A program made the translations under genes and the position numbers. This document shows positions 12,362-50,215 of a DNA stretch of 64,000 nt, piece after piece. Below the pieces are notes generated by a model. That model was not told the DNA's origin. It did not search any database and saw only the letters and a list, made by a program, of their open reading frames with translations. How positions within the stretch are numbered: the first letter of the stretch is position 1; each line of letters starts with the position of its first letter. Where the stretch lies: IMG/VR virus record IMGVR_UViG_3300031251_000002, positions 1-64,000 of that record, one strand, 5' to 3'. Origin of the DNA: a virus.

Positions 12362-12499
12362 ATGCCAAAGCGTCCCCGCACAACTCAGGTTCGTAAGCGC
12401 CGCCAGATCGGCACGACCGCAGCACCCAAAGCTCCGAAGAAAGTTACTGGAGGCCGCGTTCGTTCTGCCACCTCCAGCACCAAGGTTCACACTCCGTAA
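12362..12499 (+). CDS. 45-aa basic peptide (MPKRPRTTQVRKRRQ...) coupled to the PAPS-reductase-like gene
   Basis: GAGGAGG RBS; TAATG overlap with the next gene. Confidence 0.75.
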   Translation: MPKRPRTTQVRKRRQIGTTAAPKAPKKVTGGRVRSATSSTKVHTP

Positions 12500-13338
12500 T
12501 GGAACGGACGCTTGAGACCCATGGGAAACTGGCGGCTGTCAAGCAACTGGCGAAGGTTACAGACCACGTAGTTGTTTCTTTCAGCGGCGGTAAGGACAGC
12601 CTCGCCGTTCTTGCCCTCTGCAAGCGCTTCATCCCACAGGTCTCAGCCGTCTTCTTCTACAAGTTCCCCAACCTGACGTTTGAGCAGGACTACCTAGCTC
12701 GCGTCGGTCGAATGCTCAAGGTAACGATTGAGCAGTATCCGGCTCCTAGCCTCATCGCGCTGCTTCAGAGCGGCACGTATGGCTCTGACCGGATTCGGGG
12801 CACTGGAGCCATCGTAGAGCCACCGTGGTGGCGTTCTAAGGCCCGCGAGAGCAAGATGCTCAACGCCTTCCTGCTCCGCTCCACCGGAGCTTCGTATGCC
12901 GCCGTGGGCATCAAGAAGTACGACACCCTCGTTCGCTACCACACCATCTACAAGCAGTTCGGCTTCATGAACACCCGTGATCACATCGCCTATCCGGTAA
13001 TCGACTGGAAGGATTCGGAGGTGTGGTCCTACATCCGCCTTAACCGCTTGCCCGTGAACCCGATCTATGCCCGCACTGGGCGGTCCTTCGGAACCCTCAC
13101 CCCGGCAAGTCTCAAGGCGGTTCGTGATTTGTTTCCCAAAGACTTCAAGAAGATTGAGGCCCTGTACCCGGACATCTGGGCATCAGTAGTAAGAGGAGAA
13201 GAAATTGAAAGAGTCAAAGCCAACCGCCGTGCCTTCGTTACCGAACGAAGAAAAGCTGCCAACGCTGCTGAAGCATCAGGCGTTCACGATAGAGCGTCTG
13301 GATCGTCGGAAGATCAAGAAAGCGCCGTACAACCCTAG
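12499..13338 (+). CDS. PAPS reductase family (PP-loop) protein
   Basis: VVVSFSGGKDS; YPVIDWKDSEVWSYIRLNRLPVNPIY. Confidence 0.88.
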   Translation: MERTLETHGKLAAVKQLAKVTDHVVVSFSGGKDSLAVLALCKRFIPQVSAVFFYKFPNLTFEQDYLARVGRMLKVTIEQYPAPSLIALLQSGTYGSDRIRGTGAIVEPPWWRSKARESKMLNAFLLRSTGASYAAVGIKKYDTLVRYHTIYKQFGFMNTRDHIAYPVIDWKDSEVWSYIRLNRLPVNPIYARTGRSFGTLTPASLKAVRDLFPKDFKKIEALYPDIWASVVRGEEIERVKANRRAFVTERRKAANAAEASGVHDRASGSSEDQESAVQP

Positions 13339-14020
13339 GGCGATCTCTCCTGCTGCTCACAAGGAGCTTCTGGCGGGCATCAAGCGCTCTGGCCTCGTCA
13401 TGCCGCTTGTTGTTAACCGCACGACCGGTAATCTCGTTGCTGGCCATCAGCGGATAGACGACCTCGACCAGCTTGCAGGCTCAGATCGGTATTTGATGGA
13501 CTGTGCTGTGATCGAGGTCTCCGAGAAAGAAGAGATCGCATTGAACATTTTCCTGAACAACGAGAAGGCACAAGGCTACTTCGATGAGGAGATGCTGGCC
13601 AAAGCCCTCAAAGAAGTTGATTACAACCCTGCCACCGGCTTCGACTCGGCTGACATCGAGATCATGTTTGGCGTTCAGGACAGTGCGGAAGCGACCACTG
13701 CTCTCGATATGGTGGCCAAGGACATCGAGAAGATGGGCCAGTTCGCTCCCCCAGAGAAGGCCAAGCCAGAGGGCAAGACCGGGCAGGACACGCGCTTCAA
13801 CCCCTATACGGACAAGGAAGAGGGCGTGTCTGACGCTAACCACAACATCACGGCTAGCGCGACTGACAGCGAGCATTACCTGTACCTTGTCTTCAGGACC
13901 GGCGATGAGCGTGAGCGCTATCTGCGCTTGATGGGCGAACCCGAGGATCAGAAGTACGTCAATGGGACACGCCTTCTGAAGACGTTGGAGGATGAGGAGG
14001 CGAAGCGTGGCAAGGCGTAA
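13205..14020 (+). CDS. ParB/Srx N-terminal domain protein
   Basis: APYNPRAI...GLVMPLVVNRTTGNLVAGHQRI; TTG start with an AAGAGGAG RBS. Confidence 0.88.
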   Translation: MKESKPTAVPSLPNEEKLPTLLKHQAFTIERLDRRKIKKAPYNPRAISPAAHKELLAGIKRSGLVMPLVVNRTTGNLVAGHQRIDDLDQLAGSDRYLMDCAVIEVSEKEEIALNIFLNNEKAQGYFDEEMLAKALKEVDYNPATGFDSADIEIMFGVQDSAEATTALDMVAKDIEKMGQFAPPEKAKPEGKTGQDTRFNPYTDKEEGVSDANHNITASATDSEHYLYLVFRTGDERERYLRLMGEPEDQKYVNGTRLLKTLEDEEAKRGKA

Positions 14021-14672
14021 GCGTCCCACTCCCGAACCGGTTGATGCCCGAATGGAGGCGCTTCTTGACCTCAACCTGAGTGAAGAAGAGGCTCATCTGT
14101 ACCGCTCTCAGCTAGGCCAAGACATCCCCATCACCGCACTGCGCGAAGATCCAGACAAGCAGACTGTATGGCGCGTTCTGGAGTGGCTGTTCACCGAGGC
14201 TGGCTCCGGAACCATGGAACCAGACTTGGCTGCGATGTTTGATCGCATGCTGTCTGATTACAAGACCAAGCATCGCATCATGGCGTACGCCATCGGACGC
14301 GAGCGCCTCCAGCGCATCGTAGAACAGGTTGACCTAGAGCGCGAGATATCCGATGATCTGAAAAACGCTCTGCCCTACATGTCCAACGAGAACAAGGTTA
14401 AGGCGCTGATGGCGCTTTCAAACTCCATCTCCGCCGGTCTGGAGAACTTGGACAAGCTGGCTGGTGTGGCAGACGTATCAGAGGATGTCATGGCGGCTTT
14501 GCAGGGGCATATGAAGGACTCCGCTGTTAACAAACCGTTGAAGGAAGCGACTGGCGAGGAGCGCGAGGCAATCCGTAAGTTTGTCGAGTCGATTCGGGAC
14601 ATGGCGAAGAACGATCAATTCAGCACACTCGCTTCGGAGGAACCAGATGGAGACGCCCCTAAAGTCGAATAA
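14007..14672 (+). CDS. helical protein, possible terminase small subunit
   Basis: Position upstream of the large terminase only; no diagnostic motif. Confidence 0.45.
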   Translation: MARRKRPTPEPVDARMEALLDLNLSEEEAHLYRSQLGQDIPITALREDPDKQTVWRVLEWLFTEAGSGTMEPDLAAMFDRMLSDYKTKHRIMAYAIGRERLQRIVEQVDLEREISDDLKNALPYMSNENKVKALMALSNSISAGLENLDKLAGVADVSEDVMAALQGHMKDSAVNKPLKEATGEEREAIRKFVESIRDMAKNDQFSTLASEEPDGDAPKVE

Positions 14673-14943
14673 GGGTTCATTCACCTGTAACATATGCAAG
14701 ATTCTGGTCAAGCAAAGTGGCTTTGTACTGGGTGTCAAGGAAGCCTTTACGATAGCTCAGGCGGTCATGATCCGGATGTGCGAGCGCTGTTACCAGCAGA
14801 TAACCAATCACATGATTTACCTAGCCAAGACACTCCCCGAGACGGACAATAGTGTTTTGGAGTGGACCAATGCGGACGACACGGCTTTGTTGAAGAGCTT
14901 TGGAATATCCAATGACATCGGATCTCCTACAACTAAAGAGTAA
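14647..14943 (+). CDS. Zn-finger hypothetical protein
   Basis: CNIC...CERC. Confidence 0.55.
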   Translation: METPLKSNKGSFTCNICKILVKQSGFVLGVKEAFTIAQAVMIRMCERCYQQITNHMIYLAKTLPETDNSVLEWTNADDTALLKSFGISNDIGSPTTKE

Positions 14944-17038
14944 GGTCTCGACGGAGGCCCTGTACGGCGTCCGTCAGCTATACGACAGCCTGACTCCTCA
15001 TGAGAAGGAGCTTGCGATCAAGATCCTTGAGGATATGGATCGCAACAAGAACCCCCAGCTATACAAGACCCTCTGGGAGCTTGACTATGTGCGCCGTCCC
15101 GTCTCAGCCGAGGAGTTCATCAACAGCGAATACTATCTCGGTAAGATATGCCGGAACATCTATCCCCCATGGCGGCGGGATCTGGCCTACGTTCTCGATC
15201 CAAAGAACGAAATCTTTGAGTGGATCTGCACTGGCTCGATTGGTTCAGGGAAAACGAATTCATCCCTGATTGCACAGATGTACAAGCTGTACTTTCTGTC
15301 CTGTATCCGCAAGCCAGCCGAGTTCTTTGGGTTGATGGAGACCACACTGCTGGTGTTCATGTTCTTCTCGCTGACAGCCGAGAAGGCTGAGATGGCAGTC
15401 TCTGGCACGTTCAAGACGATGCTGGAGAAGTCCCCGTACTTCATTGACACCTTTCCCACCCGCAAGTCCAGCCGTCGAATGAAGATCGCTGGGGATAAGA
15501 CCTCCTCAGACCGTGAGTTGCTGTTCCCAAAGGGCATCGCGGTAATCACTGGTTCGCGTATGTCACACGCGCTGTCGTTCTCGGTCTTCTCAGCGGTACT
15601 CGATGAGGTGAACTTCCGCAGCAAGAAGACGATCACCGAAGATCAGGACATGGACAGCGCGGTTCAGGTCTACGAAGAAACCGCTTCGCGTATTCAGTCG
15701 CGTTTCATGGCCAAGGGTGTCATCCCCGGCATTCTCTGTACCGTGTCATCGAAGAAGTCCACGACAGACTTCATTGACCGCCACATCGAGAAGGTGCGCC
15801 ACAGCCCGAACGTCTACATCAGCGACTACAAAATCTGGGACGTTAAGCCAGACCGCATCTACTCCGGTAAGCGCTTCTTCATCAAGCTTGGTGGCAGTCC
15901 AAGCACCTCGTATGTGGTTGATAGCACCTCTGACGAGGATGCGTACTACCGTAAGTATTACGAGGAAGGCTCAGCCGTAGAGGGCAAGCCCAGTGACACG
16001 CTTCTGCCCAAGAGCGTCATGTCCGTGCCAGTGGAATACTACGATCAGTTCATCCGTGACTTCACAAAGAACCTACAGAACCTAGCGGGTGTAGCGACCG
16101 AGCCATTCGGCATGCTGTTCGACAATCCGATGATCCTCAAGAGCAGCTTTGAGACAGGCCGTGCTTCGCCATTCAATACCGATGTGCTGGAAGCTGGCGT
16201 CAAGGGCGGTCAGAAGATCAAGGACTCGTACAACTATCAGGCTGTGACAGTCTGGGATGGCCGGAACCGGATGCCTAAGTTCTATCCCCGTGCCATACGC
16301 TTCGCTCATATCGACTTAGCTAAAGGTGTACGCGACTCGGTTGGTATCTCGGTCGGCTGCATCTCCAAGCTGGTCTGGGTCGAGGTGGTCGATGTGGACG
16401 GATCGGTGGTTCGGGTGCCACGACCTGAGATATTCGTGGACTTCGTGATCAAGATTCGCGCTCCGCGTGGGGACGAGGTGTACTTCGACGAGATCCGTAA
16501 CTTCCTAGGCTGGCTACGTGACTCACTGAACTACAAGCTGGAACTGATCAGCTATGACCAATACAACAGCATTGACTCCCTCCAGCTACTCCAGAAGCAG
16601 AACTTTCAGACGCGCTACCTGTCCGTAGACCGGAATACCCGAGCGTACATGCTGCTCAAGGAGACGATTGTCGAGGATCGCTTGAAGTGCTACGACTACG
16701 CGCCTGTGTACGAGGAGCTACGTAATCTCATCTACGATCAGGTGAAGGACAAGGTTGACCATCCCCAGTTCACCAACCTTGGCTATCGCGGCTCCAAGGA
16801 CGTAGCGGACGCGCTGGCTGGGATGGTTAAGAACTGCCACGACGCACTGACGGACGCGAAGCTGCCCGGTACACGGACCCAGTTTGAGAAGCCGCTGGCA
16901 CCCACCTCGACATATCCGGGATCAACCGGCATTCAGCCGAAGGATGACTTCGCCGTGAACCGCCCAATCATCCGCCGCCCGTTTGAGCCTGAGATTACGC
17001 AGGTTTTTCCGACCACCCCATTCAAGGCCAAGATGTAA
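14912..17038 (+). CDS. terL: terminase large subunit
   Basis: Walker A GSIGSGKT, Walker B AVLDEV, RNase H-like HIDLA...DS, YDQYNS, KVDHP...GSKDVADALAG. Confidence 0.95.
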   Translation: MTSDLLQLKSKVSTEALYGVRQLYDSLTPHEKELAIKILEDMDRNKNPQLYKTLWELDYVRRPVSAEEFINSEYYLGKICRNIYPPWRRDLAYVLDPKNEIFEWICTGSIGSGKTNSSLIAQMYKLYFLSCIRKPAEFFGLMETTLLVFMFFSLTAEKAEMAVSGTFKTMLEKSPYFIDTFPTRKSSRRMKIAGDKTSSDRELLFPKGIAVITGSRMSHALSFSVFSAVLDEVNFRSKKTITEDQDMDSAVQVYEETASRIQSRFMAKGVIPGILCTVSSKKSTTDFIDRHIEKVRHSPNVYISDYKIWDVKPDRIYSGKRFFIKLGGSPSTSYVVDSTSDEDAYYRKYYEEGSAVEGKPSDTLLPKSVMSVPVEYYDQFIRDFTKNLQNLAGVATEPFGMLFDNPMILKSSFETGRASPFNTDVLEAGVKGGQKIKDSYNYQAVTVWDGRNRMPKFYPRAIRFAHIDLAKGVRDSVGISVGCISKLVWVEVVDVDGSVVRVPRPEIFVDFVIKIRAPRGDEVYFDEIRNFLGWLRDSLNYKLELISYDQYNSIDSLQLLQKQNFQTRYLSVDRNTRAYMLLKETIVEDRLKCYDYAPVYEELRNLIYDQVKDKVDHPQFTNLGYRGSKDVADALAGMVKNCHDALTDAKLPGTRTQFEKPLAPTSTYPGSTGIQPKDDFAVNRPIIRRPFEPEITQVFPTTPFKAKM

Positions 17039-17098
17039 AACTCCCTGATTGTGTAGGGAGTTTGGTGATTACTTTGACGCTTTAGGGATTTTGAATAC

Positions 17099-19036
17099 AT
17101 GGCAGAAGATATCAAACTGAATATATTTCAGAAGGGTCTCCTAAAGCTCTTCAAGATGCGTCCGGAGGATCTCCCCGGTCATCGTGAAGGCGAGATGGAG
17201 ATGTCGTGGATTGAGTTCCTACGCTCAGGACTCGATCCATTTACCGGGTACGCGCAGATCAGTCAGGATCGAATCGTTCGCTACAACGATTACGATTTGA
17301 TGGACCAGTACAGCGATATTGCAACCGCGCTGGACATCTACGCTGAGGAGGCTTCACAGCCGGATCCCCGCAAGAAGCGGGTAGTCTGGGTGGACACTGA
17401 GAAGGCTGAGATCAAGGAAGAGGGCCGCAAGTGGCTGGCGATGATCAGCGCCGAGGACCGGGCATTCGCACTGGCGCGTAACGTGGCCAAGTACGGCGAT
17501 ACCTTTGAGTACAACCTGATGAACCAGAACGGTATCTACAACCTTCAGTTCATCCATCCGAGCCGCGTGAACCGTATCGAGTCAGACAAGCTGCTTGGTT
17601 ACCAGTGTGACGAGTTAGCGCGTCTCATGATGCGGACAGGCACACAGCAAGCCCCTGAGGGCCGCTTCTTCACGCCATGGGACTTCCTGCACTTCCGCAT
17701 CGAGGCATATGACCGAGAGACCATCTATGGTCGTAGCCTGATTGAGAACGTTCGCAAGACATGGAAAGAGCTTCAGATCCTTGAGACCATGATCGCTGTC
17801 TTCCGTGTTACCAAGAGCGTTCAGCGTAACGTCTTCATCGTAGACGTTTCCCAGTCCTCGCCACAGGAAGCACAGGGCATCCTTGAGAAGTGGCGGCAGC
17901 ACCTGCGTAAGCAGCAGTTCATTGATCCGGTGACTGGGGATTTCCGTGTTGATGCTCAGGCCATTACCCCGATGGAGGATCTCATCCTCCCCGTTCGTGG
18001 CGAAAACAACAAGACGCGAGTCGAGAAGCTCCAAGCGGATCCGGATATCGGCGCTATCGAGGATCTGCACTACTTCCGCGTCAAGCTCCGCACAGCGCTG
18101 GGTATCCCACAGAGCTACTTTGAACAGTCCTTGGAGAACACGGGCTGGAACAACAAGGAAGCGTTGGTCATGCAGGACCAGCGGTTCAGCCGCAAGATCA
18201 CGCGCATCCAGCGCTCCGTGAAGAGTGGGATGACCCGAGGGTTTGCTATCCACCTGACGCTCAAGGGAATCAAGTGGGAGCCGGGTGACTTCAAGATCGA
18301 GATGGCCCCGGTTAACCAGATCACCGAGCGCCTGAAGGAAGAGTGGTGGCTGCGTCGTGGTGAGCTATTGAATGCGCTGCTTCCAGTAGCCACGGTGGCC
18401 AATTTCGACCAGCAGGAGTGGAATGACCTGATCTGCAAGGAACTGCTCCCCCTTAGCCCGTCTGACCGGAAGAAGCTCCTGACCCCTCCACCCGAGCAGA
18501 TGGCCCAGCAAGCGGCTCTGGCGGGCGCAGGAGCGGCAAAGCCGGGTCAACCCGGAGCCAAGGGCGGTCAGTCTGGTGCGAAGGCTCCTAAGCCCGGTGC
18601 TGGGGGCAAGGTGGGTAAATTCTCAACCTTTGCCGAGCCGGATAAGGCCGAGGACACCATTTCGATGCTTTCGGACTTCTTCGCAGGACGCCCGGATATC
18701 CAGACTAGCGTTCGGTCCATCGTGGAAGGCATGGAGGAGCATCAGCTTTACGAGGTGACCAGCAAGGTCAAGGAGTTGACTGAGATCCGTGAGCTTATGG
18801 CCGAGGAGAAGCAGGTGCTTGAGTCCGATCTGGCTGACCTCAAGGGTGGTCTCAAAGAATCCGACATCAAGGCCATGAAGTCCTTCGCCGCTCCGGAGTT
18901 CAACAAGTTCCCGGTCTCCGTCTTCATGGGCGATAAGCAGATGAGCATCAACGAGAAGGTTGCCAAGCTGGAGAAGCGTGGGACCAACGAAGCGGTAATC
19001 AAGATGGACTATAAGCGGATTGACAGAAAGAGGTAA
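17099..19036 (+). CDS. portal protein, T4 gp20-like
   Basis: RYNDYDLMDQYSDIATALDIYAEEA, RNVAKYGD, RNVFIVDV, EDLILPVR, IEDLHYF...ALGIP; follows terL. Confidence 0.92.
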   Translation: MAEDIKLNIFQKGLLKLFKMRPEDLPGHREGEMEMSWIEFLRSGLDPFTGYAQISQDRIVRYNDYDLMDQYSDIATALDIYAEEASQPDPRKKRVVWVDTEKAEIKEEGRKWLAMISAEDRAFALARNVAKYGDTFEYNLMNQNGIYNLQFIHPSRVNRIESDKLLGYQCDELARLMMRTGTQQAPEGRFFTPWDFLHFRIEAYDRETIYGRSLIENVRKTWKELQILETMIAVFRVTKSVQRNVFIVDVSQSSPQEAQGILEKWRQHLRKQQFIDPVTGDFRVDAQAITPMEDLILPVRGENNKTRVEKLQADPDIGAIEDLHYFRVKLRTALGIPQSYFEQSLENTGWNNKEALVMQDQRFSRKITRIQRSVKSGMTRGFAIHLTLKGIKWEPGDFKIEMAPVNQITERLKEEWWLRRGELLNALLPVATVANFDQQEWNDLICKELLPLSPSDRKKLLTPPPEQMAQQAALAGAGAAKPGQPGAKGGQSGAKAPKPGAGGKVGKFSTFAEPDKAEDTISMLSDFFAGRPDIQTSVRSIVEGMEEHQLYEVTSKVKELTEIRELMAEEKQVLESDLADLKGGLKESDIKAMKSFAAPEFNKFPVSVFMGDKQMSINEKVAKLEKRGTNEAVIKMDYKRIDRKR

Positions 19037-19039
19037 CAG

Positions 19040-19399
19040 GTGCTGCGTCCAGACCTAGTAAACAGAGTAACTGAAATCGTTTGTAAGGATCGTATCCCAA
19101 CGCCAGAAGAGAAGGCGTTGGTTAGGTCCGTAACGTATGCTGTATTCGATGAAATCGTAAATGCCTGTATGCATGGCGATCAGGTCTCCATCTCCGGGTT
19201 CGGCAAGTTCTACCCCAAGATGTCGAAGGCCAAAATCATCAACAACGGAATGCAGAACAATACCAAGTACAAGGTTCCTTCACGGCTCAAGATGAAGTTC
19301 AAGTCCAGTGAGACAGCCGACAGGATCCTAAACGATGGTCTGCAAGGGTACATGCGAGCAGCCGCAAGGCAAGTTGTTGAAGAGGAGGTCGCCAAGTGA
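19040..19399 (+). CDS. HU/IHF family DNA-binding protein
   Basis: GDQVSISGFGKF...VP...MKFKSS. Confidence 0.85.
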   Translation: MLRPDLVNRVTEIVCKDRIPTPEEKALVRSVTYAVFDEIVNACMHGDQVSISGFGKFYPKMSKAKIINNGMQNNTKYKVPSRLKMKFKSSETADRILNDGLQGYMRAAARQVVEEEVAK

Positions 19400-21152: not shown

Positions 21153-21196
21153 CTTTGTAAAAATCCCGGAGTACGATTCTCTTCAGGAGGGTCGCT

Positions 21197-24700: not shown

Positions 24701-27398
24701 CTGCTAGCCGCCGTTGAAGCCGAGGAGTTCTCGCAGGTGGCGCAGAAATGACCCAGAAGGGCGATATCGTCCTGCGGTTTGGTGGCCATGAGTGGCGATA
24801 CTTCGGTGACGCAACCAACCATCCAAGCTCGATTGTTAACTGCGAGAAGTGTAAACGAATTCAGGTTTGGGATACGTTGGTGTTGATGACTCAGATTGCC
24901 TCCTGCGGCGAACCAGACATCAAGCCGCCTCGCGGTTTTTTCAACAAGTGGGGCGTTCTGATTCGATACGGCGAGTCCTACTGTGGTCAGTGCTTGAGTG
25001 AGTATCACAACTACAGCAAGAACTGTTCTGACATCGGCTACCCGGCTGAGTACAAGGCTTATTTGAAGGCGGGAAACCTATGAACCCCTCGTTGCGGCTG
25101 CGGGTGGATCGGCTCGCACGGATGTCGGCTGAGGCCGGGTGGGATCATCTGCGGTCGAGAGCGATTACTGGGACAACATGGAAGCGAGTCATTGACTTGC
25201 TGGAGCTGACCGGTAGCCCTGAGCCGTTCGTATCCCCGTGTAGTGATGGCTCAGTTCACCTGAACTGGACGAACAATAACGATTCGTTTCTGGTCGAGGT
25301 CTCTGACGGCAAGGTGGATTGGACTATCGTAGAAGGTCGAAGCGTAGTTAGTAACATGACCACAGGCGAATGGCCCGATGACGAAGAGCTTGAGATGAAG
25401 GTCTTGGAAGGTGTAGCAAAATTGTATGAACGGCATTGAAGACTTCTTCCCCATCCTGTACCACGTACTCCTCCTGCTTGTGCCCATGGCACCAGCTTAC
25501 CTGTTCTTCAAGATCCTGCCATCGAGTGCGGCTGCGGAAGGCCCGTTCAAAGGCTTGCAGATAAAGCTGGGTGGAGCGTTTGCTGGCTACTTCGTACTCG
25601 TCCTGCTGAGCCTGTTCGTCAGCGATCCCATCATCAAGGCTAGAGAAGCAGCATGGACTCGGTACGTAGCGGACCTTGAGAAGAACATCTACCAGAGTTG
25701 GCGGGTAACCGGCCATCTGGCAGTCAAGCCCGCTGACCCGAGGTTCGATCCGCAAAGTGTAGTGGTATTCGTACGCCCCCCGGATCTCCACATCCAGCCT
25801 GACGCCCAGCTTCGCTTCGATATACCCATTCTTTTGAAGCCGGATGGCTCCAGCGACCCTCCGATGCTCATCTTTGATGCTCCGGGCTACCAGCCCTCGA
25901 CCGTGACTCTCCTAGAGCCTCCCTCTGGGGCCGGGGGTGGATCCTCCCCGGTACGCCAGCACTTCGATCCAGACAGGCACACGATTGTTCTTGACGACCC
26001 GATTACTTTGACTTCCAAAGCGAATGAACCGGCGTATAATCCCAAGCCATGACTTTCATTGACGTAACCCTTGAGCAAGTCAAACTCTCCCCGAAGGCTC
26101 GCAAGCTTAAGGGCAAGTGGCGCGTTGAGCCGGAACACTTCATGGTGCATGTTAACGGATTGACAGATCCGTACACGATTGAAGTGATCAACCTCAGGAC
26201 CGGCAAGACTCGTCCGTTCAAGCGTGGTCTTTTGGGAGCGCGATGAGTGGGTGGCAGGGATGCCGAGGATGTCGGTACATCTGGCTCATGGGGCCGTTTC
26301 ATCGGCACCTGTGGTGGCGCTTGCATCAGATTGTGGTGACCGGTGATTACCCCAAGACCAACACAAGTTCGTAGGCAGCGTCTCCCGCATAAAGCGGTTG
26401 GCTTTGCTGAAGCCTTACGGGAGGCTACACTCCGGGCGTCAACAACCGAGGATCCGAGAGGAGAAGCTGGCTGCTTGGGAGGAGAAGGAGAAGTTGAGAT
26501 GATTGACGACAAGGAATTCAATTTGGTTAGCCAGTCGGCTCACGCATTCAGCGGAGCCTTCATCGGGTTACTTGGGATGGTGCTGCATCAGTGGTGGATC
26601 CCCGCTGGCTTCGTGGTCTACAGCGCCGTCAAAGAGTTCTGGTACGACGCCAAGTATGAGACGCCCGAGGTTCGTGGTAGCAGCCTTGAGGACTTTCTGG
26701 TGTCTACTGGCGGGGCGGGCATTGGCGTGATTGTGGGGGTGTTACTATGTCGGTAGATCCGAATGATGTGGCCTTTGAGATTGCACGGAAGTGGGCTGGT
26801 CGCATCCACGACGAACACGATAAGGGCGCGGAGCATTACTTCGCGCTGCGAGACATTCTCTGGGCAGCGATTGCGACGTATGGCATGGATAGGTACACGG
26901 CTGGCCGAGAGTCCCGTGAGCTTGAGTTTCAGCAGATGAAGATCAAGGCATTTACTGAAGGTATTAGAACAGCCAATTCACTCATTCCGGAGGTGGGATG
27001 AAACTGATTACACTGCAAATTGATCCAGACGAGTTTCAGGCCATCTGTGACGGCATTGCTGCGATGTCCAAGAAGCGGCAGGAAGGCACGATTACTACGA
27101 TGGCCTTCTGTAACGGGTGTGGCTGCTCGTCTGGTGGGCCGTATTGCACCTCCCTCTGTCAGAAGCTGGCGGAAGCAAAAGAGGCAGCGAAATGAGAGAG
27201 TACGCGGATGCGTGGGCCGAGTGCAGTGCCAACGACCTATGCACTTCCCTCCATCCGCGTCAGAAGAACGGTAGTTACTTTTGTAACAGGCGTGGGCAAC
27301 GCTGGGTGTTGCTGTCTGAAGCGGAGTACCAAGCAGAGATCAAGGAATCAAGAGAATGGCAGGACGGCGATACGTGGAGGCAAGATGCCGCTAGATAA
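21709..27398 (+). other. accessory cluster of more than 20 small ORFs, many with Zn fingers or membrane anchors (e.g. 22370-22753, 23380-23676, 24383-24751, 25080-25439, 25426-26052, 26499-26756)
   Basis: Continuous stop/start overlaps on the + strand; LRDEFAGQAM...AYRMADAML motif at about 24163-24366. Confidence 0.65.
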
Positions 27399-27858
27399 TT
27401 TTGGAATGGTTACCCCGAAGCTGTTTCGTTGTGCCCAGCCCGACCCGGCTGGCATCGCTACATTGAAGGCACTGGGCGTGACGATGATCTACAAGCTCAA
27501 CAGCGATTGGTCCGCTAAGGGCGAGGCTGAGGTGTTAGGTGGCGAGGTTCAGTACGATAGTTCTATCTCGCCGTTCAAGCCCAAGAAGCAAGCGCTCCTG
27601 AACGCGGCTGACCAGCTTCACACGTTTGCCTTGGCCCAGAAGACGGTGGCGTTGCACTGTCTGCACGGGCGAGATCGGACTGGGGCGGTTGCTGCGACAT
27701 TCCGGATCAAGTACGAGTCCAAGCCGTGGCACGAAATCTACGATGACTTCATGACGTACGACACGTTGTTACTCAAGGAAGCCCTGCCCATCGTTGACAT
27801 GGGGATCATCGAAGTCCTCAAGGAAATCTACTTCGACGTTCTCGGGGTGAAGGTGTGA
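27385..27858 (+). CDS. protein tyrosine / dual-specificity phosphatase family
   Basis: NFGMVTPKLFRCAQP; catalytic loop HCLHGRDRTG. Confidence 0.88.
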   Translation: MPLDNFGMVTPKLFRCAQPDPAGIATLKALGVTMIYKLNSDWSAKGEAEVLGGEVQYDSSISPFKPKKQALLNAADQLHTFALAQKTVALHCLHGRDRTGAVAATFRIKYESKPWHEIYDDFMTYDTLLLKEALPIVDMGIIEVLKEIYFDVLGVKV

Positions 27859-29459: not shown

Positions 29460-29858
29460 ATGCCAAAAGAGAGTTCTAAGACTAAGAAGGCGAAGGAGCC
29501 GACACGCTTCAACGACATGGCGGTTCATTACTCCTACGTCACCGGATCGAAGTGCTTCTGTGGCGAGGAAGTAACCGGCACGGATCCACTGCCCGCGCAC
29601 AACTGCATCCAGACGCTCGATGAGCGGGTCGCCAAGCTTGAGGCTTTCGCCAAGGGCGCTTGTCAGTGTGGTTCCGGGTTGCCTTGTGACTTGCATAAGG
29701 TGTGGGCACCGAAGGACGCGCCAGTGAACACGAAGGCCGCACCAGATGATAGGCGCTGCTGGTGCCAGCACTTTGAGAGCAACCACATCAAGTCCGGTGC
29801 GGGAACTAACCTGTGTCGGTATTGCGATTGTCAAGGTTTCAGCGTAGTAGCGAAGTAG
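29460..29858 (+). CDS. Cys/His-rich protein with a CxCxH...H...CxxCxCxxF module
   Basis: CWCQHFESNH...CRYCDCQGF. Confidence 0.65.
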   Translation: MPKESSKTKKAKEPTRFNDMAVHYSYVTGSKCFCGEEVTGTDPLPAHNCIQTLDERVAKLEAFAKGACQCGSGLPCDLHKVWAPKDAPVNTKAAPDDRRCWCQHFESNHIKSGAGTNLCRYCDCQGFSVVAK

Positions 29859-30259
29859 GAGGTAACATGCCTTGGACGGATCAGGCCACGGATCTGCACA
29901 TCAAGATCGAGAAGATCCACAAGCGGAGTACGACGATTTGCGCGTGTATGGCCACGGTCTCGCTGGTAGCGGCGTTCTGGGCAGGGAAGAAGGATCCGTA
30001 CTTGGCAGTATTCCTTGCCTTCATGGCAGGTGTACTCTACGATATCTGGAGCCACAACAAATTCATTTGCAAAAATTCCCATCTGCCGACCAAGGAGGAT
30101 CTCTATGGCGCGTAAGGCTGAGCAGGAATCCAAGAAGGCAACGATAATGGTGCTGATCTGCTCTGATTGGGATTCTGATGCGCGTCCGATTATCCTCACT
30201 CCTGAGGATGTGTCGTTTGAGGTTTGCGAGAACTGTCGCATCGTGGAGATGGTTGAGAA

Positions 30260-30469
30260 GTGACGCCACGGGTTACAAAGCGGCGACGGCAACGGACCGT
30301 GACTGGCCTTGTGAATGGGCTTGTTCCGGATTACACGCCGTGGCTGGCGTTGACGGCAGATACAGCAACTTGGGAAGCGCCTATTATGCGCCCACAGGAG
30401 GGGCTTTCGGGGTTTAGCTCTCTGCGGGACATGCTGACGCGAAAGCTGGGACGGAAATGGAAACGCTGA
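30260..30469 (+). CDS. small protein with N-terminal TPRVTKRRRQR
   Basis: GTGA overlap with the upstream ORF. Confidence 0.55.
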   Translation: MTPRVTKRRRQRTVTGLVNGLVPDYTPWLALTADTATWEAPIMRPQEGLSGFSSLRDMLTRKLGRKWKR

Positions 30470-30696
30470 CTCCGCGAGCAACACAGGTACGCAGATCATT
30501 GCGCTCGATTGTTATACTACTGATGGCGATCTTCAGCGTATGCGTAATCTTCAGTTTGAGAATGTGTGTGACGAACTGTCGCGGATTGTTCCAATGGTCT
30601 TTGGTGATGCGGAAAAGAGAGAAGGTTCAAGTGGCGCTGGAGATGTTGAAGGCGACGGACAAGATGATGGCTCTTATGGGTATATACGGCAAATGA
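30457..30696 (+). CDS. small protein with N-terminal TPRATQVRR
   Basis: Ends in an ATGA overlap with 30693. Confidence 0.55.
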   Translation: METLTPRATQVRRSLRSIVILLMAIFSVCVIFSLRMCVTNCRGLFQWSLVMRKREKVQVALEMLKATDKMMALMGIYGK

Positions 30697-31088
30697 TTAA
30701 CCAGATTTGCACTCTCGTCGTGTTCTCAGCCTATGCGGCTATCAGTGCCATCCTCATGGTCTATGTCCGCATTCGCACCGGGACATCGAAGCTGGCGTCT
30801 ACGGCTCTGGCTACGTTGATCTTCGTTTCAGGCGCTGCACATTTGATTGAGGCGTTGACCTCCCTTCACTGGCTGTATGTTCTCTGCGAGGTGTTGGAAG
30901 CTGTGCTGGCGGTTGTTGTCTCCATCATCCTGTTCATTCTCCTGCCGAGAATGCTTCGTACAGATACCAGCGCGGGCCGGGTTTCTATGCACGATAGGAT
31001 CTTAGAGCTTCAGGGCGAACTGGCACATCTCAAGGACACGAAGGTTGAACTGGAAAAGCTGATTGGACAGGAGCCGAAGAATGGCTAA
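30693..31088 (+). CDS. 3-TM membrane protein with a coiled coil, resembling an ethylene-receptor-type sensor input domain
   Basis: AYAAIS...LIFVSGAAHLIE...AVVVSI...LLPRML. Confidence 0.5.
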   Translation: MINQICTLVVFSAYAAISAILMVYVRIRTGTSKLASTALATLIFVSGAAHLIEALTSLHWLYVLCEVLEAVLAVVVSIILFILLPRMLRTDTSAGRVSMHDRILELQGELAHLKDTKVELEKLIGQEPKNG

Positions 31089-31818
31089 GAAGCCGGTCGA
31101 GAAGAAGCCAGTGGATCCACTCAAGTACGTAACCAAGGCGCAGATGGCTGAGGACTACGACCACCTCACATCGGTTTACCATGTCCTTTCGGAGTCCCAC
31201 AACAATCTCAAGACCCTGTACAATGGCCAGCAGTTGCGTCTAGCGGAAGAGCGGGACGCACATGTGAAAGAGGTTGACGAGTTGATCGAGAGTCGCGCTA
31301 AGGCTGTTCTACGTGTTAACCAGTACAGGATCATGCTGGACCTGTACGGTCAGCACCTGTCTGGGTGTAAGTTCTTGGCAAGCTGGTTTCGTCAGCAGGG
31401 TGATTTTCCATGTGACTGTGGTTTACATCAGGCGCGGGGGACTGGAAAGTAATGAAAGAGGACTGGTATGAATTTCCTGCCATTCCTGAAACGAAAAAGT
31501 AGGAGGGGGATCGTGAAACTCGGTGAACGTGTTCTAGTTAATCTTGGGGCATTTACTCTAACGGAAGCTGTCGTGACGCGCATCGGTGATACTGGTGTGG
31601 CAGTCGAGGTCGAAGTGGCCGTGGCGGCTGGGCTGACTGGTAACAAGACGAGCAAGTATTGGCTCACGCCGGATAAGGTAGTTGACACTCTGGCTAGCCA
31701 GACGCAGCCTGTTCCGGTTTCCTAGCTATGCTCGCTGACGTTGTGCCTATGCTCTTGATGGGCGCGTTCTGCTTCGCGCTAGGAGTCAAAGCTGGTATGT
31801 GGTTAGAGAGGAGCGGTG

Positions 31819-33165
31819 ATGAAGCGTCTAACACTTAGTCTTTGTTTGTTAGGACTCTTAACGTCAGTCTTAGGGGGGACGACTCTTCAGACGATTCCCT
31901 TTAGTACCTCTCCCTATAACCCCAACATGCAGCAGTCCTCTGATGCCGCGTATTCAGGCCGTTGGGTTATTCGGGGGCAGCAGTATGGCGTCTATGCCTT
32001 GAACGCCGACAACGGTACTTACAAGATGATTACCGGTGTTGGCAAGAATGATGGGGTAGCACCAGCAGCAAACATTTTCATTACTGGGGATTGTTGGCAG
32101 AGCTTTACCAGTTTGGCAGCGACTCCCGGTGTAGCGAAGTGGGTTGTCTGGATTGGGACTCCGGAGATGTGCGCTCCGTCCGGTGTGCCGGTCCCCGCTG
32201 AGTACATTCAAGTGGCGCGACTTGACGGTGGACAGGGGCTTCGTTGGGTCGGTCAGATCCACGCGCCTCTTGTTAATCGGCTCGCACATTTCATCTACAC
32301 GGCTGGCGACACAGTATGGGCACCGGAAGGGTTATACCCTCCGACGACATGGACGAAGTGTGATCTCAACGTTCTTGGTAGCTGCGTTTCGGGTCAGCCG
32401 AGTCCTGCCGCCCAAGCTCCGCCCCAGCCGAACATTGATGGGTACACGTATTCGCTTGTAGGCGGCGGGCCGCAGTTCCATTGGACGATGGTGCGAAGTG
32501 ATGTTCAGTTGCCAACCGCAACGCCTAACCTGACGCCGATTATCTCTGTTACCCCTTCTCGTACACCGACCAAGACGAAGACTGGGACGCCGGGGCCGTG
32601 TGCGCCTCCTGCTCCGTGTCCAGCGACTCAGACGCCTATCGGGACTAGGACTGCGACTCCGGTTCCCTCGCCTACGCCAGCAGCTTCTGGATGTGGCGGC
32701 GTGGACAAGTACACGCTCTGTCTTGGCGAGCGCTTCAAGGTCACGGCCCAGTGGGTCTCGACTTCGGGATCGGGCGCGGGGACGGCTGTTACCCTGACCG
32801 ACGACACTGGAACCTTCTGGTTCTTCAGCGCTGGGAACTACGAGTTGATGGTCAAGGTGCTGGCTGGCTGCTCGACCAACTCCCACTACTGGGTCTTTGC
32901 GGCGGGCCTGACGAACGTCAATGTCACCCTGACCGTGACGGATACTCAGACCGGGGCCATTAAAACGTACGTTAATCCGCAGGGGACGGCCTACCAGCCC
33001 ATTCAGGACACGACGGCATTCCAGTGCCCTGCCGCCCCCGCTCGGGCTTTAAAAGCCAGCGTAGAGAAGAAACCGTTGTCAAAAATCGGGAAGGGCGTTA
33101 CCATCACGCTCATGCTTCTGGCAGCGGCGGCTATCGGGATGATGACGAGAGAGTTTCGTGGCTGA
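31819..33165 (+). CDS. secreted/membrane-anchored protein with a Pro/Thr linker and an Acidobacteriota-type C-terminal domain
   Basis: Signal peptide; LCL..RFKV..QW...TDDTGTFWFFS..NYELMVKVL.GC..NSHYWVFAAGLTNV.VTLTVTDT; C-terminal TM. Confidence 0.8.
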   Translation: MKRLTLSLCLLGLLTSVLGGTTLQTIPFSTSPYNPNMQQSSDAAYSGRWVIRGQQYGVYALNADNGTYKMITGVGKNDGVAPAANIFITGDCWQSFTSLAATPGVAKWVVWIGTPEMCAPSGVPVPAEYIQVARLDGGQGLRWVGQIHAPLVNRLAHFIYTAGDTVWAPEGLYPPTTWTKCDLNVLGSCVSGQPSPAAQAPPQPNIDGYTYSLVGGGPQFHWTMVRSDVQLPTATPNLTPIISVTPSRTPTKTKTGTPGPCAPPAPCPATQTPIGTRTATPVPSPTPAASGCGGVDKYTLCLGERFKVTAQWVSTSGSGAGTAVTLTDDTGTFWFFSAGNYELMVKVLAGCSTNSHYWVFAAGLTNVNVTLTVTDTQTGAIKTYVNPQGTAYQPIQDTTAFQCPAAPARALKASVEKKPLSKIGKGVTITLMLLAAAAIGMMTREFRG

Positions 33166-35603
33166 CATGGCTAAGTTGGCAATCGAGGAACGTGTTACCC
33201 GAATCGAAGAGGCGCTGAGAGCGTTGGAGTTGGAAACGAAGCCCCACTGGCCGGGGTGTGGCTGCTCCCTCCGCGCTTTCGCGGGTAAGCCGCCAGAGCC
33301 TCCCCTCCCGCCCCTCTGCCCTGCGTGTGGACGTTGGACTTGGCGGGTAGGTGGTTACTGCACCCGTCATTGTGAGAGCAAAGGTCCAGCGAAGACTTGC
33401 TCGCATGGCATATACGAGTGGGCTTGCACTCAGTCGCATCAGCCTCCGTACGCCGAATGCACCACCTGTAAGTCAGTAACCTGCTCCGGAAGTGGTTGCT
33501 GGCATGGCTTGTCTACGCACCTTCCCGGTGAAGGTTGCACGGTGAAGGGCTGTGGTTGTGAGCGCCCATGATTACTCATCTCGATTCCACCTGTCCGCAT
33601 CTGGTTGAGCTTAATCGGCTGAAGGCTGAGTCTGATGAAGTGCTGGAAGACTTTTACAATGAGGTCGAGAGCGCGTTGAAGTGCCAGCCCAAACCGAATG
33701 GCGAGTACGCGCATCTCGTTTACTGCAACGGCGACCCGCGAAAGCCGCCCGGAACCCCCGGTGTTTCTTGCTCCTGTCCTGTAGGCCGCGTTTGGCGTGA
33801 AGCTGCGGCCAAGATCGTTGAAGCCGCCCCCCGGTGTCGCATGTATGTCTGTGGGAGGAACGAAATTGCCGAAGCAGTTAGGCAGGGGAAGTGGACAGAC
33901 GAGACTCGCTGGACCGAAGAGGCCCCCGAAAAAGAGCCTCCCCGCACCGAAGCCCTCAAAGAACACTACGGCGAAGAGTGCGCGTACACCTGCCCCAAGC
34001 ACTCCTACCGATAAGGGTCCATGCACTGACGTTCTAAGGGCCGAAGCCATGAAGCTTCGGGACATGGGGCGTGTCAACGTCACCATCTGCTGGAACTGCA
34101 AGCCCGTCAACGCTTCCCTGAAGGAAGCCACGTTCGTCTGCATCTACTGCTGGCAATGCAAGCACTGGTACTTCAAGGGGCGGGATCTCACGGCACCCAA
34201 AGCTGTGGTAACATAGGCGATTATGTTTGAGACACTGAAGAGTCGCGCCTTCTGGAATGGCTGGTGGACGGGAACCTTCTGGGGTCTGCTGGTCGGCAAT
34301 CTTGGTTTCACGATCTGGTATGCCTTCCACTGGCGCTGGATTGGGCTGGTCAACATCGTAGCTTTGGTGCTTTTGGTAACGGTCTGTCGAGACCGGTTCA
34401 AGCACAAGGACTGTGGTTGCTGGTTCGGTCAGTGCCACAACTGCCATCGCTTCTTCTGCGTCTCCCATAAGATCCTGAGTCCAGTTAACTGGCTGCTCTC
34501 GCTTCCGTGGGAGTACGCTTCTGTACGCGGCCATGTTCGGATGGAACGGGTCACATGGCGAATTCTCGAAAAGTGGATGGCGGTCGAGGGCTGGTACTTG
34601 ACGAAGTTCGATCAGGTCGTTGATGACACTGGTAAGCGTGGCTGAGAATCTAGCGGTCGTGGTGTTCTTGGTGTTCTTCGTCGCCATTACGCGATGGACG
34701 TTCAAGGAGCGAGACGAGGTATGACGAGACAGGAGTTGAAGGAGTGCTTGCTGAGTGGCAGTCCCATTCCAGCATGGGGTGTGATTGTTATACTGATCGA
34801 GTGCGTTGCTCTGTTTGCATGGACGTATAGGTGGTGATTATGAAACCCGATGAGCCGAAGGACGAGAAGCGCTGCGAGACCTGTGCGCGGATGGCTGAAG
34901 CGTTTACGTACCTTCTCCGTGATGTGGTCTATCGTGCCCCCGAGGAGTTGACGGCGGAATACTACGTACGGCAGCTTGCCTTTCTGCGCGAAAAGTTCGT
35001 TGGTCGCGCATGAAGAACTGGCTTTGTCGGCTGGTAGGCCATGCGATGTGCATGAATCAGGGCCACTTCAACCCCCACAACGGCTGGCTTGATTCGCTCC
35101 ACTGCTTGCGTGGCTGTGGGAATTGGGATGCTGAAGACCCGGCTGCTCCTCGTCGCTGGCACAAGTGGATTGGTCGGTGTCGGATAGGCGAATGAACTGG
35201 CAGACCAAGCTGATTGCTTTAGTCATTGTCGGGGTCATCCTCTATGTGATAGAGTGGTGGGTAATCATTAGGGCACTGAAACGCGACGAAAGGGAGGCAC
35301 ATGAAGAACAGCGAGCGGGCCGAGAAGATCCTTTCGCGCCTCGTTGGTGAGGCGGGCGAGCTTGTTCAGGATCGAGATGGCTGTGACTACGCCTTCGATG
35401 AAGAGTCACGGTATCGAGAAGATTACTACGTGGCGCTTCACATCATCGAGGACGCGCTGGAAGAGGCCCTTGAGGATCCGGACAGCGAATTCCAGACGCT
35501 GAAGGCTGAGAACGATATGCTCCGCGAGGAGTTGGACGATCAGGATGTGTATTGCCAGACCTTCCACGTTAGGTCTGGTGAGGGCGAGGACGCGGTAACC
35601 TAG
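33158..35603 (+). other. cluster of small Cys-rich and membrane ORFs (33158-33571, 33568-34014, 34223-34645, 34831-35013, 35010-35195, 35301-35603)
   Basis: Coupled ORFs. Confidence 0.6.
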
Positions 35604-35610
35604 GAGTAAC

Positions 35611-36795
35611 ATGCCGATTAAGCGTACGCTACAGTCGCGGGTGCCAGTCAAGATTTGGACTGAGGATGTGGCAAGCAACGCCATGGATCAGTTGAAGAAC
35701 ACGGCATCTCTGCCCTTCGTCTACCACCACGTAGCGGCCATGCCGGATGTCCACCTTGGCATTGGTGCTACGGTTGGCAGCGTCGTGGCTACGGTGGGTG
35801 CGGTAATGCCCGCCAGCGTTGGTGTGGATATCGGCTGCGGCATGATGTGGATCGAGACCGGATTGGACATCGGTGTTCTCGACGGCAAGCTGCCTGAGCT
35901 TCGCCACAGCATCGAGCGCGGCGTCCCGGTGGGCTTCAACTCCCACAAGGAGCCGAAGATCGCTGCCCAGATTTTCGGGAAGAATTTTGGTCGTCCGATT
36001 GAGGGGGCTGACGACGATGAGCTTATGGGAAAGAGCCTTTGTCAACTGGGTAGCTTGGGCGGCGGGAATCACTTCATCGAGGTGTGCGTCAATCTCGACA
36101 CGAACAAACTCTCAGTCATGCTCCACAGCGGATCACGCAATGTGGGAAAGACTGTGGCCGAACGGTACATCAACAAGGCCAAGCTCCACCACCTCATTAA
36201 ACTGCCCGACCCTGAACTGGCGTACTTTGCCGCCGGGACTGACGAGTTTGCTAACTATGTGAATGACGTTCAGTGGTGTCAGATGTACGCCATGCTGAAC
36301 CGGCAGATCATGATGGACGAGGTGCTGAAGGATCTCGCCCACTTGCTGGGGGTGGATCGGTACAACGCCCACGCGAGTCTGGGTGTTACTCAGAGCGTCA
36401 ACTGCCACCACAACTACATCGCTGAAGAGATTCATTTTGGACAGAAGGTTTTCGTAACTCGTAAGGGAGCGATCAATGCCGAGAAGGGAACGTGGGGAAT
36501 CATTCCGGGAAGTATGGGCACCGGTAGCTTCATCGTTAAGGGCCTTGGGAATCCGGAAAGCTTTAACTCTGCTCCCCACGGTGCTGGTCGTCGTATGTCT
36601 CGCGGTGAGGCAAAGCGGACGTTCACCGTCGCAGACCTTGAAGCTCAGACGAGTGGCGTAGAGTGTCGTAAGGATGCTGATGTTCTCGATGAGGCCCCGG
36701 CAGCATACAAGGATATCGGTGAGGTAATCACTAACTCGTCTGACTTGGTGACCGTCGAGGCACGGATCAAGCAGGTTCTTTGCGTCAAGGGGTAG
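35611..36795 (+). CDS. rtcB: RtcB family RNA ligase
   Basis: MPDVHLG, VGVDIGCG, GGGNHFIE, HSGSR, CHHNY, RKGA, IPGSMG, SAPHGAGR, DEAPAAYK. Confidence 0.97.
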   Translation: MPIKRTLQSRVPVKIWTEDVASNAMDQLKNTASLPFVYHHVAAMPDVHLGIGATVGSVVATVGAVMPASVGVDIGCGMMWIETGLDIGVLDGKLPELRHSIERGVPVGFNSHKEPKIAAQIFGKNFGRPIEGADDDELMGKSLCQLGSLGGGNHFIEVCVNLDTNKLSVMLHSGSRNVGKTVAERYINKAKLHHLIKLPDPELAYFAAGTDEFANYVNDVQWCQMYAMLNRQIMMDEVLKDLAHLLGVDRYNAHASLGVTQSVNCHHNYIAEEIHFGQKVFVTRKGAINAEKGTWGIIPGSMGTGSFIVKGLGNPESFNSAPHGAGRRMSRGEAKRTFTVADLEAQTSGVECRKDADVLDEAPAAYKDIGEVITNSSDLVTVEARIKQVLCVKG

Positions 36796-37726
36796 TATGC
36801 TTCTTGACTTCATTTTCACTTGGTTGTTTAAGTCGCTGGCCTTGCTGTTCGTCTTTGGGGGCTTTGTTGGGATCCTGTATTTGATTGTTTTCGTGAACCC
36901 GTGGTGGGCGCTCTTGCTTGCTCCGTGGCTCGGATTAATCTTAGCCCTTCAGGAAGAGTCATGACTGACCCCAACTTCACGGTGCGTGAAGGCGACCCCG
37001 AGCATGTGGCCTTTCATCGCCTCTACGATGCGCGTGGTAACACCGCTGAGTTGAGAGAAGCCCATCCTGAATACTGCTCGCAGTGCTTGTACTCGGCTGC
37101 GGCAGAGTGGTTCTATCTGGGCTGGCACTCGAAAGAGAAGTTCAAGTGTGGTGGCTGCGGACATGCTGCCTCTGCGGGCAAATACTGCTCGCTCCGCCCT
37201 GAGCCGGATGAGAGGGAAGAGCAGCGCTTGCGCGAATACGCTAAGGCTGATCTTTGTCCTCATGGCTACAAGCGCTGCTGTGGAAATAAAGCCGCTGACG
37301 AACTGCACCCCTAGCCTTCTGAAGAAGTGGAATTCCATTCTGAAGAAGCACGGGCTGCGTGTTATCCAGCCCGGTGATAACACTCGACAATTGAATGCGT
37401 CGAAGCGTAGACTTCTGGAAAGCAAGAGGAGGAAGCGTGAAAGTCGGCTCAGTAGTTCTGTTCAAGACAGAGGGCAGTCCAACGGAAGCACGGATCAGGA
37501 GAGTATCTGATAACGGCGCTGTGGTTGAAATCGAGTATCCACCCAATGGTTCTACGCTAAGTGTAAAGTGGGTGACGGCTGCTAGCATTCTGGATACGCT
37601 TGGCGAGAAGCCTGATGTGGTTCCTGAGGCCGCACCTGCTCCAGCACCCCCGCCTATCAATCCGCTTCCGGAAGGCATTGACACCTCGCGGTTCGATACT
37701 GCGTCCGGGCTGCATCAGAATCGTTG

Positions 37727-38062
37727 ATGACGCCCCGGCGTACCCAGCTTCGCCGTCGTAGGCGGCTGTTCAACGATTTTGAGATTACCGACCGGCTCGG
37801 TAATCCGGTAGACACGCAATACCACTTCAACACTTCACCCTATCCGGGACATTTGGAACTGATCTCCGAACATCGGTACGAGACGTTTGAGATGATCTTT
37901 ACGGTTGTAGCGAAAGACGGCGATACGGATGCACAGGAAGTCCGGATACCGACCCGTGACGGTAGGCAGTTCCTTGCGGTCGGCATCCCAGTTCCGGCGT
38001 TGCGTGAAGGCCAGTTTTACCAGTTCCGGCTCAGTCTTGAAGCCTACATGAGTTTGAGGTAA
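37727..38062 (+). CDS. protein with N-terminal TPRRTQLRRRRR
   Basis: TGATG overlap with the upstream ORF. Confidence 0.65.
   Translation: MTPRRTQLRRRRRLFNDFEITDRLGNPVDTQYHFNTSPYPGHLELISEHRYETFEMIFTVVAKDGDTDAQEVRIPTRDGRQFLAVGIPVPALREGQFYQFRLSLEAYMSLR

Positions 38063-48997: not shown

Positions 48998-50215
<1,218 letters not shown>

Follow-up and report, generated by a model that had tools for sequence, protein, structure and literature searches.

The genome analysed here belongs to one uncultured T4-like phage of 166,450 bp, and the window is the whole 64,000-nt stretch of DNA with which its record begins. Five open reading frames of the plus strand, called A to E below, share a short motif close to their first start codon. 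A (12362-12499) encodes 45 amino acids with a net charge of +13 and without a single Asp or Glu, is preceded by an AGGAGG SD sequence and has been called by public gene callers. Its motif, RPRTTQVRKRR, lies at 12371-12403, and the coding score behind the motif is 8.8 per 50 codons, where true genes reach 10.9 +/- 4.5. The stop codon of A overlaps by 1 nt (TAATG) with the ATG of a PAPS-reductase-like PP-loop gene (12499-13338, plus strand), so that the translational coupling that had been claimed for A is indeed seen. Next come a ParB_N-like gene (13205-14020), the large terminase (14912-17038) and a T4-type portal (Portal_T4, 17099-19036). A is a conserved, protamine-like 45-aa protein that is coupled to a DNA-modification and packaging block. 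A weaker case of the motif, previously placed near 11134, does exist as the start (MASSSMPTRIPIQKRRRKPT) of a 176-aa Cys-rich protein (11119-11649, plus strand), but it does not match the strict pattern, and its score in the profile scan stays under 22. This N-terminus resembles the start of the A homolog in the relative L095 (MPTGIRPAMAQAKRRRTIGT).

The other four carriers differ considerably in how well they are supported as genes. B (26343-26756, plus strand, 137 aa from a GTG) consists of the tag, a 38-codon acidic and Gly linker and a membrane body; its motif TPRPTQVRRQR (26349-26381) has an in-frame stop 4 codons upstream. This long form has never been called by public gene callers, and the form on record, in 5 contigs, is an untagged one of 85 aa (26499-26756, plus strand), which begins at an internal SD-led ATG (GGAGGAGAAGGAG upstream). 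C (30260-30469, plus strand, 69 aa from a GTG) is coupled through GTGA to an upstream 52-aa gene and has the motif TPRVTKRRRQR at 30263-30295; its tagged start was never called by public gene callers either. D (30457-30696, plus strand, 79 aa) begins with the tag (TPRATQVRRSL, 30469-30501), continues with one TM helix and ends in an ATGA formed with a start at 30693. It overlaps an alternative 182-aa ORF (30540-31088): D and a 131-aa gene are called on 2 contigs, and the 182-aa ORF instead on 3. A frameshift or bypass that would join the D tag in frame 0 to the frame-2 ORF was considered and rejected, as there is no slippery site and independent assemblies are identical.

E (37727-38062, plus strand, 111 aa), with the motif TPRRTQLRRRR at 37730-37762, is coupled through TGATG to an upstream 96-aa gene, is called on every contig and has a coding score of 7.2 per 50 codons. 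Its body is a beta-sandwich, the last strands of which are DUF11/CARDB-like. An exhaustive HMMER search with E gave DUF11-repeat matches to the C-terminal strands only and no full-length homolog. A and E are the only firm genes among the five carriers. Therefore the original prediction of five small proteins was too strong: five tagged ORFs are there, at the positions where the shared peptides had been reported, but public gene callers never used the GTG starts on which B and C depend, and their calls for D vary.

In the six-frame translation of the entire 166,450-bp genome the pattern PR.T[QK].R[RK] has exactly 5 matches, all of them on the plus strand (none on the minus strand), none internal to an ORF, and all between 12.3 and 37.8 kb. 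Each match begins 1-5 codons past the first start codon of an ORF, within the first five residues as had been claimed, and this zone, which holds all five, makes up only 7% of the six-frame positions. The equivalent DNA pattern finds the 5 copies and one out-of-frame match in the forward direction and nothing in reverse, and the backwards control is likewise empty. First-order Markov genomes contain on average 0.15 matches of the motif (maximum 1 in 40), and a residue-shuffled proteome contains none in 300 shuffles. A BLOSUM profile built from the five copies scores them at 36-43, and every other position of the genome at 25 or less. The consensus of the tag is T-P-R-x-T-(Q/K)-x-R-(R/K)-x-R, starting 1-5 residues past the initiator. 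Each copy holds a cluster of about four basic residues (RKRR, RRQR, RRRQR, RRSLR and RRRRR), and the tagged N-termini have the highest positive charge in the entire proteome. In summary, the five-copy motif is non-random, strictly N-terminal and portable.

The most common base is found on average in 3.9 of the 5 copies at the first codon position and in 4.2 at the second, and in 2.6 at the third; the Arg codons of the motif include both AGA and CGN. Since the first two codon positions are kept and the third is not, the conservation resides in the peptide and not in a DNA or RNA element, as the original prediction had held when it set the motif apart from a DNA repeat. It was also right that the downstream bodies share nothing. 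They are a low-complexity basic peptide (A), a membrane protein (B), a small soluble protein (C), a single-TM protein (D) and a DUF11-like beta-sandwich (E), without any pairwise similarity, and the DNA that flanks the five copies shows no similarity after correction for ten comparisons. A Tat or Sec signal peptide was rejected as a candidate: a hydrophobic h-region follows the tag in D only, A, C and E have none, and that of B lies more than 60 residues away.

The same codon pattern bears on whether the motif could be a cis-acting DNA or RNA element, such as a promoter, an operator, a translational-repressor site or a structured RNA, with the peptide being incidental. Four of the five copies do lie within 200-280-nt stretches that have no confidently called gene, and the 9-mer TGCATCAGA is found only upstream of B and E, a coincidence that is insignificant after multiple testing. 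However, base conservation follows the codon positions, the flanks are dissimilar after multiple-test correction, RNAalifold did not find a common structure, a search of 10-40 kb gave no Rfam match, and promoter- or terminator-like sites are not in excess. We consider this explanation largely refuted already and its residual probability to be very small.

Potentially, the copies in B, C and D could be left over from duplications of gene starts, either decaying or not translated, in which case the real family would consist of A and E. The calls described above fit this idea, since the long form of B and the tagged form of C are uncalled and D is called inconsistently, and so do the coding scores behind the motif, which per 50 codons are -1.6 in B, where the linker scores weakly, 3.1 in C (the 5th percentile of true genes) and about 0 in the overlap of D, compared with 10.9 +/- 4.5 for true genes. 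Furthermore, B has a strong SD-led ATG of its own at 26499, 52 codons downstream. On the other hand, neutral remnants would not hold their amino acids while the third positions diverge, each copy stands 1-4 codons past a start codon and directly after an in-frame stop, C is coupled through GTGA and the stop of D forms an ATGA with the start of the following gene, and three additional matches by chance are very unlikely. We therefore regard the relic explanation as unlikely.

We were not able to find the motif in other genomes, either in five other large phages, in 1.7 Mb of related or RtcB loci, or, with a narrower pattern, across all of IMG/VR. The back-translated motif gave 33 matches in IMG/VR, and since each of these either lies in a tiny ORF or is not in frame, there is no convincing N-terminus among them. 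The 54 phage RtcB loci (853 kb), which are not close relatives, contain neither the motif nor homologs of the five proteins, and these proteins have no match in Pfam or PHROGs. Neither a blastn search of phage records with the terminase/portal region nor scans of IMG/VR with peptide patterns of these two proteins gave a match. Portal-profile scans of metagenome and genome collections led only to relatives of at most 42% identity, all without the motif. That closer relatives exist is shown by two short ENA contigs whose portal identity is 74-81%. The phage is carried by fen or rhizosphere samples; near-identical contigs from other samples differ by 0-3 SNPs and are for this reason uninformative. 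Among the genomes searched, the motif is limited to one phage lineage, and comparative support is absent.

The only relative with the PAPS-reductase/ParB module is L095, which carries a syntenic basic homolog of A with 59 aa and a net charge of about +17, likewise coupled to the PAPS-reductase-like gene. Where A has RPRTTQVRKRR, this homolog has RPAMAQAKRRR; it contains the basic half of the motif only and keeps Q-x-basic-basic-R-R-x-I-G-T. The PR.T part has therefore been lost while the module stays, and no further copy of the motif occurs in the 12 kb of L095 that were examined.

Two earlier proposals were that the PAPS-reductase-like PP-loop enzyme recognises the tag as its leader, or that the tag is a Thr phosphorylation site. 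It is true that the coupling of A to the PP-loop gene is conserved in L095, that T-P and T-Q are kinase-type sites, and that a DSP/PTP-type phosphatase is encoded at 27385-27858. But L095 has both the module and A without PR.T and without a second copy, a Pkinase search found no protein kinase in the genome, and the kinase-like genes of another relative, L096, have no homolog here. Enzymes of the PAPS-reductase family act on nucleotides or nucleic acids and are not known to act on peptides. We find both proposals improbable.

The tag, then, is a translated, lineage-specific N-terminal arginine-rich module that sits on unrelated bodies and is maintained by selection at the level of the peptide. 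To this extent the portable N-terminal tag of the original prediction stands, whereas none of the specific roles suggested for it is supported. The most likely reading, to which we assign a probability of roughly one in three, is that the tag is a short nucleic-acid-binding arm, a docking or address tag being nearly as likely. Such an arm would hold its carrier on the phage DNA or RNA, as the arginine-rich motif (ARM) of lambdoid N or the adenovirus 'molecular sled' peptide does. The motif of A is the first part of an obviously polyanion-binding peptide, from which we infer that this module probably acts likewise on B to E. Examples are known of short basic peptides at a protein terminus that bind RNA hairpins (the lambda N ARM, PMC2724277) or slide cargo along DNA (pVIc, PMC4740752). 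As for a common RNA target, no hairpin recurs among the 126 perfect 7-bp stem-loops of the phage genome, to which the scan was confined.

Several observations about the carriers sit uneasily with a nucleic-acid arm. Two of them are membrane proteins, the fold of another is one usually seen in surface proteins, and behind the motif the coding statistics of three of the five (B, C and D) are weak. Specific recognition is suggested by the invariant Thr, Pro and Gln, and a protein partner would account for these just as well.

Nearly as likely, the tag is instead a docking address, read by a protein of the phage or the host that would direct all carriers to one shared destination or fate, for example the prohead core (as the capsid targeting sequence, CTS, of T4 does), a membrane complex or timed turnover by a protease. 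A recognition peptide is typically marked by such invariant residues (here Thr, Pro and Gln) at fixed spacing on unrelated bodies, the phage is T4-like by its Portal_T4 portal, and the internal proteins of T4 share only their N-terminal CTS (PMC3012670). A docking or degradation tag also suits a mixture of membrane and soluble carriers better than a nucleic-acid arm. Against this, no candidate reader was found, the PR.T half of the motif is lost in the A homolog of L095, and membrane proteins are unlikely cargo for a capsid. A prohead-protease site (x-x-Glu and a small residue) directly after the tag is not consistently found: A is entirely free of Glu, no consistent site lies near the tag in C, D and E, and the sequences FAE-A, LRE-A and RGE-A occur in the linker of B only. 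The earlier suggestion of a capsid signal thus finds no support in a conserved Glu-type site, and it is also at odds with the two membrane carriers.

Tentatively, the tag may be a new phage-encoded address label, by which a specific putative reader would bring together, at a single site on the phage genome or inside the particle, five unrelated proteins: one protamine-like peptide, one small soluble protein, one Ig-like protein and two membrane proteins. If so, it would be one case of a wider, undescribed phage habit of using short Arg-rich terminal peptide tags. Portable terminal tags give viruses a way to sort proteins without dedicated machinery for each of them; foreign proteins are now packaged with the help of the T4 CTS, and the lambda N peptide has turned into a standard tether for RNA. 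A new basic tag, sharply defined and 9-11 residues long, could, together with its reader, offer a similar handle, and it would explain some of the 'dark' small genes that large environmental phages contain. For now, what is well supported is the sequence pattern, in a single uncultured lineage.

Among known systems, the CTS of T4 is a non-basic peptide that the prohead protease cuts off at a Glu-type site. The tag described here differs from it in being strongly basic and in having two carriers that are membrane proteins with TM helices, which argues against packaging into the prohead or virion. What the two have in common is a portable N-terminal peptide that, in a T4-like phage, is the only part shared by otherwise unrelated small proteins, just as the CTS is a short conserved peptide on the otherwise diverse internal proteins IPI-III (PMC3012670). 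With regard to arginine-rich motifs, no PDB chain matched residues 1-30 of A or E at E <= 10, and there was no Pfam or PHROG match. The local polar-Q-x-R-R pattern of the tag recalls residues 3-8 of lambda N, which we regard as a lead only. A phage has a single lambdoid N protein, which is matched by a repeated hairpin, and we see five unrelated carriers; in both cases the protein begins with a phage-encoded Arg-rich peptide of about 15-20 residues (PMC2724277). Finally, the adenovirus peptide pVIc differs in being a C-terminal cleavage product that attaches covalently to its protease, and in coming from a eukaryotic virus; yet pVIc, too, is short, viral and terminal and has several basic residues in a row, and it can carry heterologous cargo along DNA independently of sequence (PMC4740752).

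A six-frame translation of the whole phage genome has exactly five matches to the arginine-rich motif PR.T[QK].R[RK], always on the plus strand, and all five peptides (in the ORFs starting at 12362, 26343, 30260, 30457 and 37727, here A to E) read as given in the original prediction. The regular-expression scan proposed there finds no match in shuffled proteomes, and simulated genomes that preserve the dinucleotide content contain 0.15 matches on average and one at most, compared with the five observed. In each copy the nearest start codon lies 2-5 codons and an in-frame stop 3-18 codons before the motif; only 7% of six-frame positions follow the first start codon of an ORF that closely. A profile built from the five instances gives them scores of 36-43 and at most 25 to the rest of the genome, so that we see a discrete family with exactly five members. 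The peptide at 11134 (176-aa ORF, 11119-11649), suggested as a weaker case, falls outside it.

The virus record (166,450 bp, with the window as its first 64 kb) is rated complete by CheckV and holds nearly all genes on the plus strand. It encodes 20 tRNAs, a T4-type portal (Portal_T4, 2.4e-53), a PAPS-reductase-like PP-loop protein, a ParB_N-like protein and RtcB (35611-36795). The same genome has a 157-aa DSP/PTP-type phosphatase (27385-27858; Y_phosphatase3, 7e-7), whose substrates may be either proteins or RNA ends. Since several independent metagenome assemblies contain near-identical copies (0-3 SNPs), the sequence is not an assembly artefact; copies this similar give no evolutionary information.

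With the five copies aligned on the proline codon, the commonest base is common to 3.9 of 5 copies at codon position 1 and 4.2 at position 2, but only to 2.6 at position 3, and the arginines of the motif use both AGA and CGN codons. We were not able to find a common RNA structure among the copies, a match in Rfam, an excess of promoter- or terminator-like sites or, after accounting for the ten pairs, any significant similarity between the flanks. Given both the codon pattern and these negative results, the conservation is in the peptide and not in a DNA repeat, as had been claimed. The 9-mer TGCATCAGA has just two occurrences in the 64 kb of the window (26322-26330 and 37711-37719), both of them 8-13 nt upstream of the start codon of a tagged ORF (B and E); it is not significant once multiple testing is considered.

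To judge the carriers as genes, we used a codon log-odds score calibrated on long genes from the same phage (true genes 10.9 +/- 4.5 per 50 codons, open shadow frames about -9 to -12). Behind the motif A scores 8.8; it has an AGGAGG SD and is a called gene on the record. E, with a score of 7.2 and TGATG coupling to the gene before it, is among the called genes of every contig, and C, GTGA-coupled to its upstream gene, scores 3.1 and is never called. For B, the record has an untagged membrane protein of 85 aa that begins at an ATG with a strong SD (26499), so the tagged 137-aa form (26343-26756, GTG start), with a 38-codon linker scoring -1.6, would be an alternative isoform of greater length. 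Such dual initiation, at 26343 (tagged) and 26499 (untagged), would recall the two starts of holin/antiholin, but the forms of B differ by 52 residues. D (30457-30696), followed by the ATGA start at 30693 of a 131-aa ETR1_N-like membrane protein, is called so on two contigs, whereas another three contigs have a 182-aa ORF starting at 30540 in its place; where this ORF and D overlap, both frames score near zero. The 131-aa protein (30693-31088), whose start is ambiguous (30540 or 30693), has three TM helices and matches the ethylene-receptor N-terminal domain (Pfam ETR1_N, 29.7 bits, cut-off 27), an unusual domain for a phage. From scores and gene calls, therefore, two carriers are firm (A and E), and B, C and D rest mainly on the motif itself. 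The motif is a fairly strong argument for these three as genes, because neutral relics would keep neither the amino acids while third positions diverge nor a start codon directly before the motif.

As predicted, the bodies behind the tag are mutually unrelated: A continues as a peptide of low complexity that lacks acidic residues (net charge +13), B has at least one TM helix at its end, C is small and basic, D has one TM helix directly behind the tag and E is a beta-sandwich. Residues 33-111 of E align in the Atlas structure model to Ig-like domains with a TM below 0.5, and all that an exhaustive HMMER search recovered was two giant proteins, matched at the last strands of DUF11/CARDB repeats. 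No other N-termini in the proteome carry as much positive charge as the tagged ones. Elsewhere in the window there are long Thr-Pro repeat linkers (41780-42890, where a Pel9A-like beta-helix protein of 1371 aa ends and the next gene, of 247 aa, begins) and collagen-like GPP repeats (49716-49966).

The relatives are known from fragments alone, with portal homologs at 81, 74, 64, 62 and 60% identity. In locus L095 (portal 62%) the gene order is the same: a small basic gene, a PAPS-reductase-like gene (1-nt coupling), a ParB-like gene, terminase and portal. The small basic gene of L095 encodes a 59-aa protein that can be aligned with A (RPAMAQAKRRRTIGT against RPRTTQVRKRRQIGT), which makes A a conserved protein of this lineage; the basic half and IGT are retained, the PR.T half is not. 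Loci L096 and L097 (portal 60%) have neither the PAPS-reductase/ParB module nor the motif. Judged on two informative relatives, the strict motif does not appear tied to the module. A leader for the PP-loop enzyme (12499-13338), as originally proposed, has gene adjacency as its sole favouring point and seems unlikely. L095 also has a LAGLIDADG-like ORF between the PAPS-reductase-like and ParB-like genes (L095:2056-2487) and, separating its terminase and portal genes, an Endonuclease_7 ORF (L095:6341-6883); both are absent at these places in the window. The gene directly after the portal (19040-19399 in the window, 58% identical to that of L095) is HU-like (Bac_DNA_binding) in L095, L096 and an SRR490139 contig; in T4, gp67 and gp68, which are small core proteins, are encoded at this position.

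Searches for the DNA pattern of the motif were negative in five other large phage genomes, in 853 kb of RtcB loci, in 895 kb surrounding distant T4-like portals and in the two nearest relatives found, and a narrower pattern gave only 33 matches in all of IMG/VR, none a credible N-terminus. A described signal of this sequence did not turn up, nor did a match in Pfam, PHROG or PDB; the concept of such a tag is already known. The pattern is robust, yet confined to one uncultured lineage, with five copies, two of them on firm genes. At the level of sequence, the data establish a portable N-terminal peptide under selection.

As to its putative role, a Thr phosphosite is doubtful, the nearby DSP-type phosphatase being the one point for it. 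We favour, with a probability of roughly one in three, a candidate nucleic-acid-binding arm, because the motif of A is the head of a protamine-like peptide beside DNA-modification and packaging genes. Almost as likely, though still only possible, is an address or turnover tag read by a protein: Thr, Pro and Gln are invariant, the carriers mix membrane and soluble proteins, and in T4 diverse internal proteins have a CTS in common (PMC3012670). However, the defining feature of the T4 CTS is a protease site, which is missing behind the tag of this phage. The nucleic-acid-binding arm would resemble terminal arginine-rich peptides with a known activity, be it the binding of RNA hairpins by lambda N (PMC2724277) or the sliding of cargo along DNA by pVIc (PMC4740752).
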